A stretch of DNA of 31,242 nt, from IMG/VR virus record IMGVR_UViG_3300020043_000581, positions 1-31,242 of that record. The stretch is one strand, 5' to 3'. The stretch is from a virus (taxonomy: Duplodnaviria > Caudoviricetes). The position numbers and the translations under genes are program-made. The notes beneath the pieces were generated by a model that had not been told where the DNA came from, searched no databases, and worked only from the letters and a program-made list of their open reading frames with translations. This document shows positions 2,732 to 31,080 of this stretch, in pieces (positions within the stretch are counted from its first letter, which is position 1; each line of letters begins with the position of its first letter).

Positions 2732-3205
2732 ATGGAATTTTGGAAAGATGAAGCGTATCAAATTGCTCGGAAAATTACTTCGAATCACGAACTTCATGCG
2801 GATTTGGTTGGTCATGTTTTTATTCTCATGCACCGCTTTGACTTTCATCTTTCCGACATTCCAGCTGTTTTCGCTCGCTTCGCGTTCAATCAATGGACGT
2901 GGCAAAGGTCGGAATTCTGGCGACTGTACCGAAGCGACGGCGAAGCAATCAACGACGTGATTGATTCACATGATTCACCTTCGAATAACGAATTCAGCGA
3001 AATGCTTGACGCTTATCTTCATTCAAACCATGGTGATCCATTCATCAAGGAAATCACAAAAATGCACCTTTGTGGAATGACATTCAGGGACATCAAGGAA
3101 CTGACTGGAATTTCACTTGACACAATTCATAAAACAATAAAACAATTCAAAAATGATTTACACGATTATAGCGGTAGCGATCGCACGGGCGTTGATGTCC
3201 TTTGA
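2732..3205 (+). CDS. Phage sigma70/ECF-like sigma factor (late transcription)
   Basis: Region-2-like HADLVGHVFI and region-4 HTH MTFRDIKELTGISLDTIHKTIKQFK; lies upstream of the late genes. Confidence 0.7.
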   Translation: MEFWKDEAYQIARKITSNHELHADLVGHVFILMHRFDFHLSDIPAVFARFAFNQWTWQRSEFWRLYRSDGEAINDVIDSHDSPSNNEFSEMLDAYLHSNHGDPFIKEITKMHLCGMTFRDIKELTGISLDTIHKTIKQFKNDLHDYSGSDRTGVDVL

Positions 3206-23356: not shown

Positions 23357-23811
23357 AAATAATTTACGCCATTTTAATCACGTTTGCCGTCGTTTCGTGT
23401 TCATCGGAAAGGAAAGCACAATATCACGTTAAAAAAGCGCTTAAACATGGCGCAAAATTAACACAAGACACCGACACAATTCGAATCACAACCATTGATT
23501 CATTCCCGGTCATTAAACACGATTCAATTGTTTGGGAAAAATTCATAACAACAAAAGACACGGTGATAAATTTTAGAAACGTGTATGTTCCGAAGACACG
23601 ATTCCAGACACGAATCGAATACAAAGAACGCGTGAAGACACTTCGAATCGAAGGAAAAACAAAATGGAAAACAGCGAAGGCGGTTCAGGTTGTGAAATAT
23701 CGCACGAACTGGTGGGTTGTCTTCATTGCTTTTGTTGTTGGCTTCATCCTTCGATTTGTATTGAACAGCACCTTCATTTCGCGCGTTCAATTATTCTTCA
23801 AATATCTATGA
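23353..23811 (+). CDS. Spanin-like lipoprotein (u-spanin architecture)
   Basis: Signal peptide with lipobox VVSC, beta-rich middle and C-terminal TM; follows the endolysin. Confidence 0.6.
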   Translation: MKIIYAILITFAVVSCSSERKAQYHVKKALKHGAKLTQDTDTIRITTIDSFPVIKHDSIVWEKFITTKDTVINFRNVYVPKTRFQTRIEYKERVKTLRIEGKTKWKTAKAVQVVKYRTNWWVVFIAFVVGFILRFVLNSTFISRVQLFFKYL

Positions 23812-24842
23812 ATAAATTTCGACCAAGGTTGACGCCAGACGAATTTCGTGTGGTTGAACAATACCGTGCAATCAAACGTGAATGTATTGAACAAGACATC
23901 GACCTGAAGACCGTCAAACACGGTTGGTTGAAATCAAAGAACACCAGCTTGTTTTTCAAGAATCCTGACTTTGAAGACCAAGAATCAAAGAAGCTGGAAC
24001 AATTAAAGGTTGACATTCTCAAATCGATTGAAGAACATTCACCAGTTTATCCAGAAATCAAACGAACGAAATCAAGTGAAGGTCATTTACTTGTCATTGA
24101 TCCAGCTGACGTTCACATCGGAAAGCTTGCGACCGCGTTCGAAACTGGTGAAGATTACAACCAACAAATCGCCGTCAAGCGCGTTCACGAAGGTGTTCAA
24201 GGAATTCTTGACAAGTCAAGTGGATTCCAGATTGAAAAGATATTGTTCATCGGTGGCAATGACATTCTTCACATCGACACACCGAAACGTCAAACGACTT
24301 CAGGAACACCACAAGACACCGACGGAATGTGGTACGAAAATTTTCTAAACGCGAAACGGTTGTATGTTGAAATTCTTGAAAAGCTGGTGACCATTGCGGA
24401 CGTTCATTTCACTTTCAATCCGTCAAATCACGACTATACAAACGGCTTTTTCCTTGCGGATGTCATTCAGTCATGGTTCAGGAATTGTCCGAATATCACA
24501 TTCGATTGTTCAATATCACATCGCAAAGCGTTTCAATACGGCACAAGTTTAATCGGAACGACACACGGCGACGGCGCGAAGCTTCATGACTTGCCGTTGT
24601 TAATGGCACAAGAATTCCCGGTTGAATGGTCGCAAACGAAACACCGTTATGTGTACACACACCACGTTCACCACAAAATGTCAAAAGATTTCATCGGTGT
24701 GACGGTTGAATCTTTGCGTTCACCGTCTGGAACGGATTCATGGCACCACCGCAATGGTTACCAACACGCGCCGAAAGCGATTGAAGGATTCATTCACCAC
24801 AAAGAACACGGTCAAATCGCACGATTGACACACATTTTTTAA
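23808..24842 (+). CDS. Calcineurin-like metallophosphoesterase
   Basis: DVHIG, GNDILHID, SNHD, THGD and HHVHH motifs. Probable start ATG 23808. Confidence 0.85.
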   Translation: MNKFRPRLTPDEFRVVEQYRAIKRECIEQDIDLKTVKHGWLKSKNTSLFFKNPDFEDQESKKLEQLKVDILKSIEEHSPVYPEIKRTKSSEGHLLVIDPADVHIGKLATAFETGEDYNQQIAVKRVHEGVQGILDKSSGFQIEKILFIGGNDILHIDTPKRQTTSGTPQDTDGMWYENFLNAKRLYVEILEKLVTIADVHFTFNPSNHDYTNGFFLADVIQSWFRNCPNITFDCSISHRKAFQYGTSLIGTTHGDGAKLHDLPLLMAQEFPVEWSQTKHRYVYTHHVHHKMSKDFIGVTVESLRSPSGTDSWHHRNGYQHAPKAIEGFIHHKEHGQIARLTHIF

Positions 24843-24888
24843 GCTTATCACCTTATTTTTGCGGAATTTATTTCAGCTTATCGCCTTA
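24842..24888. repeat. Direct repeat AGCTTATC(A/G)CCTTA x2, 33-bp period
   Basis: Copies at 24842-24855 and 24875-24888. Confidence 0.6.
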
Positions 24889-24936
24889 AAAAGTACAATT
24901 CACCGCACTTTTGTGTCGTTTATGACAACTAATCTT

Positions 24937-24958
24937 ATTTAGAATCATTCTAAATTTG
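24937..24958. promoter_or_regulatory. Perfect 9-1-9 palindrome ATTTAGAAT-C-ATTCTAAAT (Fur-box-like) overlapping -7 element TAAATTTG
   Basis: Palindrome at 24937-24955; TAnnTTTG at 24951-24958. Confidence 0.65.
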
Positions 24959-24977
24959 TGTAAAAATTAAAAGTTTT

Positions 24978-25018
24978 GTGAAAAAAGTTTTTCACTTATG
25001 AAACATTTTGTAATTTCA
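24978..25018 (+). promoter_or_regulatory. Second palindrome GTGAAAAA-AG-TTTTTCAC and putative early promoter
   Basis: 8-2-8 inverted repeat at 24978-24995, then ATGAAA-N7-TAATTTCA. Confidence 0.5.
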
Positions 25019-25046
25019 CCACGTTAAACAATTAAAAAAACACAAA

Positions 25047-25229
25047 ATGGAAAAAGAACAAATGATTGAAATCATTCTTCGTGAAGAACGTGAAGCGCGT
25101 GAATTCATGAATGAAATGGTCGAGAACTTCGGTCGTCAAGACGACTACACAAAACGAACAATTGCACAATGGTGTGTGATTGCTGAACTTATTGAAAAAC
25201 TACAAATCGAAAACAATGAAGAACTTTGA
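25047..25229 (+). CDS. Small early hypothetical protein
   Basis: 60 aa with an A-rich leader. Confidence 0.7.
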   Translation: MEKEQMIEIILREEREAREFMNEMVENFGRQDDYTKRTIAQWCVIAELIEKLQIENNEEL

Positions 25230-25335
25230 TCCTGAAGCACAAGAATTCCTGAAGCAAATGTTTGAATTCTTAAAATTTACCGCAATGGCGACCGTTTGCA
25301 CAATTTTATCACTTTATTTAATCTATTTATTATGA
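25216..25335 (+). CDS. Small membrane peptide (39 aa, MKNFDPEAQEF...)
   Basis: Translated by hand; C-terminal hydrophobic helix; ATGA overlap with the next gene. Confidence 0.55.
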   Translation: MKNFDPEAQEFLKQMFEFLKFTAMATVCTILSLYLIYLL

Positions 25336-25682
25336 AAGTAACATTCGACAAAAACCATTCTTCATTCACCTTTGAATTTGATTTCGACAAGTTCGGTGAA
25401 GGTTCATTCAAATTCGTTGACGTGACATGTGTTGACCATGACATCGTTGACGTGAACATTGAATTCGAAGACGTGTGGACGACACAACACATCGGTGAAA
25501 TTGAAATCGATTACATCCTGAACGAAGAAGAATGGAACGAACTTGAAAACGAAGTCAAAAGACAAATTCTTGAACAACCATTCGACTTTGACGCGCACGA
25601 ATATATTTCGGACGAAGACAAGTGGAACTGGTTCAAATATGAACAACAACAAATCGAACAAGCAAATGAAGAAAAATTCTAA
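25332..25682 (+). CDS. Acidic hypothetical protein
   Basis: ATG 25332 within the track ORF; strongly D/E-rich. Confidence 0.7.
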   Translation: MKVTFDKNHSSFTFEFDFDKFGEGSFKFVDVTCVDHDIVDVNIEFEDVWTTQHIGEIEIDYILNEEEWNELENEVKRQILEQPFDFDAHEYISDEDKWNWFKYEQQQIEQANEEKF

Positions 25683-25818
25683 ACCAAAAGAAAAAATGAC
25701 ATTGCCGACAATGGTTCGGTGGTGGTCACGTCAAAGCTTTACGCATGACAAAGGCGGTTCGTTTAACGTCCAGCTTTACCTTAAAATTTGTGAAATTAAA
25801 CTTTTGAAAAATGTATAA
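25666..25818 (+). CDS. Small hypothetical protein
   Basis: Start uncertain (25639, 25666 or 25696); fills the gap. Confidence 0.5.
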   Translation: MKKNSKPKEKMTLPTMVRWWSRQSFTHDKGGSFNVQLYLKICEIKLLKNV

Positions 25819-25954
25819 ACTACTTTACTTCTATGAATCACGGCTTGCGGAATCTTACGAATTCCCGACGAAAGCGCTTTGTCACTGGAAAATCAATGAA
25901 TTCCGCAAAGCTGGCACGCACATTTATGGTCACTTTGTAATTGAAAAGATATGA
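25811..25954 (+). CDS. Small hypothetical protein (47 aa, MYKLLYFYES...)
   Basis: Translated by hand; ATGA overlap with the next gene. Confidence 0.6.
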   Translation: MYKLLYFYESRLAESYEFPTKALCHWKINEFRKAGTHIYGHFVIEKI

Positions 25955-26205
25955 AGATTCCACAATTGAAACGCTGTTACATTATTGTTGAACTCTTGAA
26001 CGATTTGAAGATTCATTCCGGAAAAGAAATTCAACGAAAAGTCAATGAACGAATGGGTGCAAATTATTGTAAAAGTCAAATTGAAAAAGATTTGAGCTGG
26101 ATCAAATGGAATCTTGACATGGACGATTATTATTCATCTGGTCATGGTATTAAATTATATGAACCGCTTGACTTTTGGAAAGCGCTTAAAAACTATCTGG
26201 AATGA
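25951..26205 (+). CDS. Putative winged-HTH protein
   Basis: R..II.ELL...SGKEI...KSQIEKDL resembles the wHTH at the N-terminus of WYL regulators. Confidence 0.55.
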   Translation: MKIPQLKRCYIIVELLNDLKIHSGKEIQRKVNERMGANYCKSQIEKDLSWIKWNLDMDDYYSSGHGIKLYEPLDFWKALKNYLE

Positions 26206-26612
26206 ACGAAGACATCAAAGAACTTATTGCCGAATATAAACTGGACAAACCATGTCGCAAACGCGAAACTGTTTACAAACGATACTATCTTATGAACATT
26301 CTTCATTGCCGTTCACGGTTGTGTTTGCGTGAAATCGGTGAACTATTCAACCGCGATCATTCCAGTGTGATTCATGGATTGAAAGAACACAAGCGGTGGT
26401 GGTCACAACTTGACGAAGAATATCTTCGCGCAATTCATCCATTGCCGGAACTGGTGACCGATGAAGGACGGATTCCGAAGAATCAATTCTTTGATTGCGA
26501 AACGACTGAAGATTCAATCACGATTCGTGGAAAATTTACAAAACAAGTTTTGAAAGAATTTGAAAGACCATTGACAAAGACCGATATTTCACTTATCTTC
26601 GCACATTCATAA
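26202..26612 (+). CDS. DnaA domain-IV-like HTH protein
   Basis: LREIGELFNRDHSSVIHG matches the DnaA C-terminal signature. Confidence 0.75.
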   Translation: MNEDIKELIAEYKLDKPCRKRETVYKRYYLMNILHCRSRLCLREIGELFNRDHSSVIHGLKEHKRWWSQLDEEYLRAIHPLPELVTDEGRIPKNQFFDCETTEDSITIRGKFTKQVLKEFERPLTKTDISLIFAHS

Positions 26613-26634
26613 TACGTTTTGTTTAATTGGTTGG

Positions 26635-26661
26635 AAAGCGCTGGGAAACTGGCGCTTTTTT
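26635..26661 (+). terminator. Intrinsic terminator
   Basis: AAAGCGCTGG-GAAA-CTGGCGCTTT followed by TTT; two G-U pairs. Confidence 0.8.
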
Positions 26662-26836
26662 GCGTTACAGCGCGACAAAGTTGCGATTCTCTTATATACC
26701 CTGCCAGAAAAAAAAGCGGTATTTTTTAGGGGGGGGGGTAAAAACTTTTGTAATTTTGTCGCGCTTTGGTCGAAAGTCAATGTGGGGTGGTTTATAGGCG
26801 TTACAAAATGCGTTACAAAAATTTATTTTTGTCGCG
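26662..26836. other. Putative replication origin with iteron-like repeats
   Basis: GCGTTACA x3, GCGCGACAAA/TTTGTCGCG inverted copies, A8 and G10 runs; non-coding, upstream of the primase-helicase. Confidence 0.55.
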
Positions 26837-26848
26837 TTGTGTTTATGA

Positions 26849-26870
26849 ATGAAATTATTTTTTACTTTTG
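26849..26870 (+). promoter_or_regulatory. Putative host-sigma promoter for the replication operon
   Basis: ATGAAA-N8-TACTTTTG (TAnnTTTG). Confidence 0.65.
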
Positions 26871-26953: not shown

Positions 26954-26966
26954 ATGTGATATTAGA

Positions 26967-29354
26967 ATGATTCCAAACATTTCGGTCTTCAGGTCGTTAT
27001 TCAATGCAAAAGAAACACCGTTCACGATGAACGTGGTCGAAGTTTACAATCGAATCAAGAACGGTTATCCTGAACTTGTTTCGAAAATCAACCGACTTCG
27101 TGAAATGGACGAATCAACCGAAGCTTATCGTTCATTGAAAAATTCATTGCTGGCGATTATGTTCAACGGAACATTCAACCAGCGAACCGACAACGGCTTG
27201 ATTGAACATTCCGGGTTGTGTATCTTGGACTTCGACGACTATCCTGACCAAGAAACAATGAATCAAGACAAGCAAAGGTTCAAATCATTGCCGTTCGTGT
27301 TTATGGTCTTTACTTCACCTTCGAATAAAGGACTGAAGGTTGTTGTCAAGATACCACAATCAACGAAAGAAGAACACAAGCGACGATTCAAAGCGCTTGA
27401 ACTTGAATTCAATTCCGACTATTTCGACACGTCCAGTCAAAACGTTTCAAGGGTGTGTTTCGAATCTTACGATCCAGACGCTTACATGAACGAATTTTGT
27501 GACGAATTCACAACCATTGACGAAGAACGTGGTCACATCTTTACTGAACGTCCACCAGTGTGTCGATTAGTGGACGAATCAAAAATAATTGAACGAATCA
27601 TGAAGTTCGATTTCGGTGGTGAATTCAATTCAGGCAATCGGAACAATTACATTTTCAAGCTTTCAGCTTGTCTTTGTGAATACGGAATCACACGGGACGT
27701 TGCCGAATATCACCTTGAACAATTTGTGTCAAGTGATTTCACGAAAGCGGAACTGGCGAACACAATTAAAAGCGCTTATCGAACCGCGGACTTCAAAATC
27801 AAGTATTTCGAAGACAATGAAAAGCTAACAAAAGCGAAGCTGAAGATTCGTCAAGGAATCGCCACGAAGGACATTACTGAAGCGCTTGGTCTTGATGAAG
27901 AACAAATCGATGAAATCAAAAGCGATATTGAAAACAATCAAGACGTTTTCTGGACAATCACGCAATTGAAGACCGGGGAAAAGATTACAATTGAACCGAA
28001 CAATTACAGCGCTTTTCTTTCAAAACATGGATTCGGGAAATACTATCCTGAACGCGCTTTGTCACCTACCTTTGTTTTGGTAAAAGAAAACAAGGTTCGT
28101 TTGTCATCGGTTGAACAAATCAAAGATTTCGTGTTGAAATATCTGGAATCGCGATGTGAAATATCGGTGTGGAATTATTGCTCACGTTCGACGTATCTAT
28201 TCAGCGAAAATTTCCTGAACATGATTGATTCCATTGACGTCAAAATGCTTCAGGACACCAAGACCGAATCATTCATTCCATTCAAGAATGGTGTGGTCAC
28301 GATCACGAAGAAGGATGTCACGTTGAAAAGTTACATTGACGTGAACGGTTACATTTGGGAAAATCAAATCTTGAACCGGGACTTTGTTCAACTGGACGAC
28401 CACAAGAACGACTTTCAAGATTTCATTTCCAAGGTATCGAATAAAGATACAACCAGAACACAAGCGCTTGAATCAACACTTGGTTATTTGTTACACACTT
28501 ACAAAGACAAGACCGAACAAAAGGCAATCATTTTCAATGACCAAGAAATTGACGACAACGCGAATGGTGGTTCAGGAAAATCATTGATGTTGACGGCAAT
28601 CGGTTACTTCAGGAACATTGTCACCGTGGACGGAAAGCAATTCAATTCAATGAAAAATGACTTTGTTTACCAGCGCGTGAACCTTGACACGCAAATTCTT
28701 GCGTTCGACGACGTGAAAAAGAACTTTGACTTCGAACAATTGTTCAGTGTGGTGTCACAAGGAATCACCGTCAACCGAAAAAACAAGGACGAAATTTACA
28801 TTCCATTCGAAAGGTCACCGAAGATTGTGATCACCACGAACTATGTGATTGCTGGCGCTGGTTCAAGTCACGACCGACGAAGACACGAACTTGAATTTTA
28901 CCAGTATTTCAACGCGCAACATTCGCCATTAAAAGAATACGGTCGTTTGTTGTTTGATTCATGGTCACAAGATGACTGGTCAAAATTTGACAACTACATG
29001 ATTGCGAACGTTCAAAAATACCTAAACGAAGGATTGACCGCAACGACATCAATCAACGCGGACACGAAGCGATTCATTCAAGCAACATGCAAGGACTTCT
29101 TCGAATTCGTTCGTGAAGGCAATCTGGAACTTGACATTTATCACTACAATCAAACGAAGCTTCAGGAATTCCAAAATGAAACAAATTCATTCCGGGACTT
29201 GTCAACACAAAAGTTCAAAAAATGGGTGAAGGAATATGCAAATCACAAGGGGTACAAATACACCGAAGGTCACAACCATTCAGGTCGTTATTTTATCTTG
29301 ACTGAAGGTTCACCAGCGAATGAATTTACACCGAAAAACGATTGTCCATTTTAA
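26967..29354 (+). CDS. Primase-helicase (BT4734/VirE-N-like primase, PriCT-like domain, SF3 helicase)
   Basis: HSGLCILDFD, SPSNKGLK, SRVCFESYDP, GNRNN, Walker A GGSGKS, FDD and ITTN. Confidence 0.88.
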   Translation: MIPNISVFRSLFNAKETPFTMNVVEVYNRIKNGYPELVSKINRLREMDESTEAYRSLKNSLLAIMFNGTFNQRTDNGLIEHSGLCILDFDDYPDQETMNQDKQRFKSLPFVFMVFTSPSNKGLKVVVKIPQSTKEEHKRRFKALELEFNSDYFDTSSQNVSRVCFESYDPDAYMNEFCDEFTTIDEERGHIFTERPPVCRLVDESKIIERIMKFDFGGEFNSGNRNNYIFKLSACLCEYGITRDVAEYHLEQFVSSDFTKAELANTIKSAYRTADFKIKYFEDNEKLTKAKLKIRQGIATKDITEALGLDEEQIDEIKSDIENNQDVFWTITQLKTGEKITIEPNNYSAFLSKHGFGKYYPERALSPTFVLVKENKVRLSSVEQIKDFVLKYLESRCEISVWNYCSRSTYLFSENFLNMIDSIDVKMLQDTKTESFIPFKNGVVTITKKDVTLKSYIDVNGYIWENQILNRDFVQLDDHKNDFQDFISKVSNKDTTRTQALESTLGYLLHTYKDKTEQKAIIFNDQEIDDNANGGSGKSLMLTAIGYFRNIVTVDGKQFNSMKNDFVYQRVNLDTQILAFDDVKKNFDFEQLFSVVSQGITVNRKNKDEIYIPFERSPKIVITTNYVIAGAGSSHDRRRHELEFYQYFNAQHSPLKEYGRLLFDSWSQDDWSKFDNYMIANVQKYLNEGLTATTSINADTKRFIQATCKDFFEFVREGNLELDIYHYNQTKLQEFQNETNSFRDLSTQKFKKWVKEYANHKGYKYTEGHNHSGRYFILTEGSPANEFTPKNDCPF

Positions 29355-31058: not shown

Positions 31059-31080
31059 ATGAAAAATTTGTTTATCTTTG
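31059..31080 (+). promoter_or_regulatory. Putative host-sigma promoter for the recombination operon
   Basis: ATGAAA-N8-TATCTTTG (TAnnTTTG), 22 nt before ATG 31103. Confidence 0.65.

Follow-up and report, generated by a model that had tools for sequence, protein, structure and literature searches.

The window, by which we mean the whole stretch of 31,242 nucleotides analysed here, consists of a complete 31,121-bp phage genome plus a 121-nt terminal repeat, and all of its long ORFs that match phage families lie on the + strand. Terminase, portal, holin, amidase, Erf, SSB, a primase-type protein and a methyltransferase were identified among the 48 ORFs scanned, and no match to an integrase, a CI-type repressor or Fur was found among them. 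The original prediction of a phage with no repressor or integrase of its own therefore held for these 48 ORFs, but the genome does encode DNA-binding-like proteins, one at 26202-26612 (Table 1) and, with a weak match, one at 2732-3205. The latter, a 157-aa protein with a weak C-terminal HTH match, is retained in relatives at 48-99%; by eye it has the look of an ECF-type sigma factor and is a candidate late regulator.

The site under study lies in an intergenic gap (24843-25046) between a DNA repair exonuclease family gene and a series of small early ORFs. No Pfam or PHROG match was obtained for the small ORFs, and the 84-aa ORF matched only unnamed clusters in the Atlas. The predicted unit is closed by a protein with a DnaA-type HTH and followed by a predicted intrinsic terminator; a hairpin with a T run occupies the same place in 13 of 15 relatives, and the downstream primase has conserved candidate -7 elements of its own. 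The non-coding stretch before the primase (26662-26870) contains three copies of GCGTTACA (26662, 26798 and 26810), a run of 10 G and two copies of TTTGTCGCG (26755 and 26828) with an inverted copy at 26671. These repeats hold their position in 13 of 15 relatives, including relatives that lack the palindrome described below, and the stretch is a candidate origin of replication to which the neighbouring DnaA-type HTH protein may bind.

The host is probably a member of the Flavobacteriales (Bacteroidota), for three reasons. Those cultured primase matches that have a named host were phages of Flavobacterium, Cellulophaga, Polaribacter, Maribacter and Bacteroides; the window has promoters of the -7 type; and in the order of host genome G001, the only order searched, 3 of 401 genomes encode relatives of a 319-aa virion-block (capsid-like) protein. 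A terminase search returned only 27-30% matches, to phages of unrelated hosts, and carried no host information. A host in the Alphaproteobacteria or Firmicutes, in which the site would be an Irr or PerR operator, was not supported, given the Bacteroidota-type -7 elements, the Bacteroidota phages among the nearest cultured primase matches with a named host, and the relatives of the capsid-like protein.

Table 1 Features at and around the putative operator (positions in the window)
Feature	Position	Strand	Basis or remark
Gene of PHROG 704, DNA repair exonuclease family	23664..24842	+	End of late block; synteny anchor
Fur-family box, 19 bp, 9-1-9	24937..24955	.	Motif match and conservation
TAAATTTG, possible secondary -7 element	24951..24958	+	Overlaps right arm; no conserved -33 partner
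A/T-tract spacer, box to core promoter	24959..24987	+	Length varies by whole helical turns in relatives
-33-like element, TTTTTCA (TTTTGCA in several relatives)	24988..24994	+	Predicted, alignment
Early-promoter -7 element, TAATTTCA	25011..25018	+	Predicted; starts 74 bp after box start
Small early ORFs (60, 39, 116, ~40 and 84 aa), function unassigned	25047..26205	+	ORF calls
136-aa protein, DnaA C-terminal HTH, last gene of predicted unit	26202..26612	+	PF08299, E 8.7e-08
Predicted intrinsic terminator, GAAA-loop hairpin and U run, before primase	26632..26661	+	-17.9 kcal/mol, z -4.15
4-mismatch copy of the box over primase start	26960..26978	.	Probably not functional

The palindrome reported previously and the overlap of its right arm with TAAATTTG were both present as described. 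With the structure ATTTAGAAT-C-ATTCTAAAT, it is the longest perfect palindrome in the genome (spacer of at most 8) and ends 91 bp before the ATG at 25047. Palindromes with 9-bp arms of any sequence occurred 0.81 times per genome in 100 order-3 Markov simulations and are thus common in such DNA, so that only agreement with a published motif carries weight. The Fur box proposed for Riemerella anatipestifer, as given in excerpts of PMC5609570, is ATTTAGAATTATTCTAAAT; it equals the phage box at 18 of 18 arm positions and differs solely in the central base, in agreement with the original prediction. When up to three mismatches were allowed, the palindrome was the single match to this motif in the window, compared to 0.01 expected in shuffles. 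The same excerpts and those of PMC10986502 report that Riemerella Fur shifts promoters containing the box, such promoters were derepressed in a fur mutant (excerpts of PMC10986502 and PMC7976709), and binding of Fur to an iron-uptake promoter was observed only with Mn2+ (excerpt of PMC7976709).

A scoring matrix was built from 100 host sites. The phage box reached 31.3 bits (host sites: minimum 15.9, median 29.4), a near-optimum score that is circular because the host sites were chosen by the same pattern and are biased to near-consensus sites. No further box was found in the genome: the third-best site scored 7.6 bits at the end of an ORF, the remainder scored below 0, and a second promoter-like site at 31073 was without a box in the matrix scan.

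Across IMG/VR, the exact motif was present in 124 viral stretches in 12 of the 64 parts of the collection (an estimated ~650 for the whole), while two composition-matched control palindromes gave 7 and 4 matches in the entire collection. The motif is roughly 100-fold enriched in viral contigs over these controls and, judging from such counts and from the conservation described below, is under selection in phages. The central base was C or G in 105 of 125 phage sites, compared to 29 of 71 Bacteroidota sites; a central C or G was also frequent at host nqrA and cytochrome c sites.

Conservation was assessed in loci retrieved by means of the upstream gene; of 80 such loci, 8 were dropped for having less than 500 nt downstream. 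The box was kept in 18 of 23 close relatives (82-97%), so that it does recur at the same place in related phages, whereas 7 of the 49 distant relatives (upstream gene 60-70%) had only a 3-mismatch match and relatives at 36-51% primase identity had no box in the fetched stretches. Column identity across 17 distinct sequences was 0.97 for the box and 0.98 for a CTT at 24934-24936, to which the conserved block reaches leftward, compared to 0.52 for the left 37 bp and 0.76 for the right side. We consider the site real, conserved and probably functional. Exactly one box was found in each of five near-complete relatives (5/5), and five other records contained none within three mismatches. Three of these five box-less records form a clade nested among box-bearing phages in a primase tree of 19 rows and retain the same core promoter, as does the box-less sister clade at large (5 of the 23 close relatives). 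The nested position and the shared promoter suggest that this clade probably lost the site, a pattern that phage mosaicism could mimic, and the same promoter without a box indicates that the site is dispensable.

Two weaker sites were noted among the relatives. In the box-less clade (L476-L479), a near-palindrome with 5-6 mismatches lies 79 bp before the -7 element and ~20-40 bp after the upstream gene; it is half a turn out of phase and is perhaps a decayed box. Six distant loci (L502, L511, L518, L519, L522 and L523) have in common a site with three mismatches, rich in A and T and followed 57 bp later by a canonical -7 element, which may be either a weak box or another operator.

An alignment of 12 sequences placed the early promoter downstream of the box, with a conserved -33-like block and a conserved -7 position (Table 1). 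Three relatives (L261, L279 and L291) carry a canonical TATCTTTG or TAGATTTG at this -7 position, where the element of the window itself is non-canonical. Given that the Flavobacterium -7 element spans -12 to -5 (excerpt of PMC9723704), the predicted transcript start falls near 25023 and the box centre near -77. The box end and the -33-like element are separated by 33 bp; the box would thus lie upstream of the core promoter without overlap. TAAATTTG had been taken for the -7 element of the main promoter, but the -7 element that is conserved as a pair with a -33-like sequence is another one, beginning 74 bp from the start of the box. A scan for E. coli-type promoters (11 sites compared to 6.8 expected, none at the box) was uninformative for this phylum. 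The inverted repeat TTTCAC-NN-ATGAAA (5-4-5) occurs only at 24990 and 31051 in the window, each copy preceding a predicted early-type -7 element (25011 and 31073), and is partly kept in relatives.

The distance between box start and -7 element was close to invariant or changed by whole helical turns. In the 18 box-bearing relatives it was 74 bp (15 relatives), 73, 75 or 64 bp; a distance of 64 bp was seen in L460, L296 and L010, and one of 53-54 bp in the related promoters of L043, L073, L078 and L084. Phage-wide, strict -7 positions peaked at 33, 53-54, 63-64 and 74-75 bp downstream of the box. For the 125 phage sites in 62 clusters, which contained 64 strict -7 matches 25-110 bp downstream, phasing at 10.5 bp reached R = 0.44, a value that none of 20,000 uniform draws attained; for comparison, R was 0.27 on the upstream side (n = 23). 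By this measure, the box and the promoter stay on the same face of the helix. In other phages, the two ORFs that follow a phased site were mostly small and without an assigned function: 18 of 75 matched a PHROG (75 of 90 listed ORFs were surveyed), five of these matches being named (helicase, exonuclease, recombinase-like, Erf and NinB) and none belonging to head or tail families. In a separate group of seven loci (L008, L011, L029, L031, L046, L059 and L068), the box precedes the -7 element by 33-35 bp, covers the -33 region and lies upstream of a ~220-aa gene (phrog_5824 in the four tested), a layout that is, by its position, repression-type.

To see what the motif marks in the presumed host group, bacterial genomes were searched. 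The exact scan (5 of 64 parts) returned 120 stretches, 70 of them Bacteroidota by title, and 136 adjacent ORFs were scanned in the first 80 stretches. Neighbouring genes in Bacteroidota encoded TonB receptors, HmuY, imelysin, IscA, SufB, Fur-family proteins and, on the iron-consuming side, NqrA, cytochrome c and CcmE; the motif thus marks iron-related genes in this group. Five Bacteroidota genomes contained 6-9 sites each within two mismatches (reversed control, 0-1), and in one Flavobacteriales family sites within one mismatch were present in 51 of 61 genomes (reversed control, 2 of 61). Literature match, iron-gene neighbours, viral enrichment and conservation make it highly probable, in line with the original prediction, that the palindrome serves as an operator for a host protein of the Fur family, whichever the sign of control.

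The phage spacing was then applied to host loci, using windows of 52-55, 63-66 and 73-76 bp taken from the phage peaks. We scanned 273 ORFs, identified cytochrome c by CxxCH and classed 84 Bacteroidota locus-strands by hand, leaving out loci that were unannotated, unrelated or from other phyla. A strict -7 element lay in a phased window in 38 of 51 iron-consuming loci compared to 0 of 33 loci for uptake, Fe-S assembly or starvation, a comparison in which classes were set by hand after the distances had been seen, orthologues are non-independent and most loci come from one family. Counting by gene family is therefore the fairer measure, and here 6 of 13 iron-consuming families were phased compared to 0 of 12 uptake or starvation families (Fisher p = 0.015), 7 of the 13 iron-consuming families having no phased site. 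Phased genes were nqrA (14/14), cytochrome c (18/20), sdhC (3/3) and also fumA. The -7 elements of uptake and starvation loci, when found, were at -26 to 47 bp (one also at 91). The nqrA spacing alternates between 74-75 and 64-66 bp, similar to the phage promoter, and G001 contains both layouts, phased upstream and over the promoter.

Taken with the host spacing, the phased upstream position of the phage box suggests that metal-bound host Fur activates the early promoter rather than represses it: for a regulator that requires metal and represses uptake promoters from over the promoter, activation is the simplest outcome from a phased upstream site. We assign a probability of about 0.57 to the reading that Fur acts in this way and that the unit at 25047-26612 is expressed well only in iron-replete cells. 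After entry of the phage DNA, metal-bound host Fur would bind at about -77, contact RNA polymerase on one helical face and help it to initiate at an early promoter that is weak by itself. Iron starvation of the cell would lower expression of the early unit, and infection would be slowed or deferred. The phage would benefit by starting its programme when respiration and iron enzymes are running, and any effect on replication would be at most indirect, e.g. via the DnaA-type HTH protein encoded last in the unit. The sign of control is then likely opposite to the one first implied: repression had followed from a layout with the box over the -7 element, and this layout was not supported for the promoter 74 bp downstream, which resembles those of host iron-consuming genes.

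Expression data from Riemerella bear on this reading in two ways. Under iron restriction, sdh, fumarase and cytochrome genes fall while suf, iscA and uptake genes rise (excerpt of PMC5609570). The sdh, fumarase and cytochrome genes fall likewise in a fur mutant under iron restriction, and no drop in sdh or fumarase is listed for mutant versus wild type in iron (Table 2 of PMC5609570), a pattern not expected from sole activation by Fur if those promoters carry the box.

An alternative explanation, which we consider unlikely, is that Fur represses a promoter whose -7 element is TAAATTTG, so that early genes rise when iron is scarce, or that two promoters alternate, Fur repressing one of them and activating the other. 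TAAATTTG is canonical, starts 14 bp from the box start and may be a second promoter element; 15 of 17 distinct close relatives retain its TTG, and the repression-type overlap of box and core promoter, absent for the conserved 74-bp promoter, would apply to this possible second one. Two host loci (L172 and L189) and the cultured phage laban6-1 show such an overlap as well, and repression is the sole mode demonstrated for Riemerella Fur in the excerpts of PMC5609570 and PMC7976709. However, a TTG within an 8-nt window at -33 spacing from TAAATTTG was found in only 2 of 17 relatives. The element was kept in 15 of 24 hand-picked similar phage promoters, and the 9 without its TTG mostly still have a downstream -7 element at 53 or 74 bp; spacing in whole turns would also be left unexplained by pure repression. 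Rather improbable, in our view, is a reading of the site by another Fur-family protein of the host, responding to peroxide, haem or manganese, or by a protein acting metal-free. Such a reader would presumably be PerR-, Irr- or Mur-like. In Alphaproteobacteria the same 19-mer adjoins genes for rubrerythrin, ferritin and bfd, and in Firmicutes it lies next to other genes; these neighbours suggest that the motif is probably common to several Fur-family proteins. Two to three family members are encoded in three of the five Bacteroidota genomes, and iron responses persist in the Riemerella fur mutant (excerpt of PMC5609570). Against this, G001 and G003 encode one family member each, although both are metagenome-assembled and possibly incomplete, and it is Fur itself that binds the box promoters in Riemerella and whose loss derepresses them (PMC5609570, PMC10986502 and PMC7976709, in the excerpts cited above).

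Binding of the palindrome by a phage protein, for autoregulation or at a cis replication site and independently of iron, is very unlikely: the phage does encode the DnaA-type HTH protein and other DNA-binding-like ORFs, but a search of 12 loci with the box did not find the 84-aa ORF in 5 of them, relatives without a box still have the DnaA-type and 157-aa proteins, and the motif occurs in many dissimilar phage contexts and at host iron genes. Even less should be expected of the decoy idea of the original prediction, in which replicated genomes would titrate Fur and derepress host iron uptake. The near-consensus score of the site would suit a decoy, albeit with the circularity noted above, but the window and all five near-complete relatives hold one copy per genome, and a decoy would work whatever its phase relative to a promoter, so that the helical spacing would be left unexplained. 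Finally, a chance AT-rich palindrome, or an RNA hairpin or terminator ending the late block, is largely refuted by conservation and enrichment. The simulated frequency of such palindromes would allow for chance, but the motif expectation of 0.01, the conservation relative to the left flank and the enrichment over control palindromes all contradict it, and the fold of the palindrome is weak for a terminator (-4.4 kcal/mol, without a U run).

Direct coupling of replication genes to Fur, the other part of the original prediction, was not borne out. The degenerate copy at the primase start was present with four mismatches and spans the start codon (ATG at 26967), its right half encoding M-I-P-N, but a functional role was not supported, as 24 of 33 relatives have at least 5 mismatches there. 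With 9.5 bits it ranks second among the sites of the genome (0.07 sites of this strength expected per null genome) but scores below all 100 host sites. Unconserved and below the host range, it was rejected as a second operator; with the conserved terminator between the early operon and the primase also considered, direct control of the replication genes is not supported.

Host iron regulators acting on phage DNA are known from prophage toxin genes, namely Shiga toxin under Fur and tox under DtxR, which are cargo genes repressed by iron. The present case is similar in that a host iron regulator would act on phage DNA, but differs in that the target would be the early programme of the phage itself, in a genome with no integrase detected among the ORFs scanned. 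Relative to the Riemerella Fur regulon, the phage box is the same save for its centre and likewise intergenic ahead of a start codon, but it lies upstream of the core promoter instead of over it, and only repression is demonstrated in the parts of that work cited. In Salmonella (hilD), and in Neisseria as cited in the same source, metal-bound Fur activates promoters directly when bound upstream of them (excerpt of PMC3089636). The phage site shares the position upstream of the core promoter and the predicted ON state with iron; unlike those cases, its spacing is fixed in helical turns, and it is a site predicted from sequence. Phages gated by host CtrA (lytic deferment), LexA or Spo0A (phi29) sites (excerpt of PMC9437464) likewise carry a host operator in an intergenic phage promoter that recurs in dissimilar phages with no phage-encoded regulator; here, in contrast, the signal would be a metal nutrient, the site is single and the predicted effect is activation of a small early operon. 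In the open-licence literature searched (main texts), neither Fur boxes on Bacteroidota phage promoters nor phased Fur activation in Bacteroidota were described. Co-option of host regulators by phages is known; the iron-sensor version at an early promoter would be new.

Flavobacteria carry out much of the degradation in lakes and seas, environments in which growth is often limited by iron. If their phages read the host sensor at the first promoter, iron supply would directly tune viral lysis. More tentatively, Bacteroidota Fur might be a dual regulator that activates iron-consuming genes from helically phased upstream sites, and hundreds of phages of this phylum, including phages without integrase or repressor, might have copied this layout to their early promoters. 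Host iron would then set whether or how fast infection starts, and lytic phages in waters poor in iron would face a nutrient checkpoint. The host data also point to a simple positional rule for Fur activation versus repression in Bacteroidota, which was not found in the literature searched.

Among cultured phages, a 32-base query matched 126 records with weak E-values, including 59 Flavobacterium and 17 Polaribacter phages. In Polaribacter phage Freya_1, a perfect box is accompanied by -7-like elements at 24 and 39 bp, whereas the box of Flavobacterium phage laban6-1 has one mismatch and its elements lie at 14, 55 and 86 bp; both layouts differ from the one described here. As cultured phages of both genera carry the box, the question is accessible to experiment.

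Further bacterial loci were noted. In four genomes, three from Bacteroidota and one from Lachnospiraceae (L157, L171, L181 and L188), dnaA is preceded by a perfect box at a distance of 215-334 bp, possibly linking a Fur-family protein to the chromosomal origin region. In genome G004 (L357), one box lies between the divergent genes fumA (Fe-S, -7 element at 64 bp) and fumC (iron-free fumarase), which offers a natural test of opposite control from a single site.
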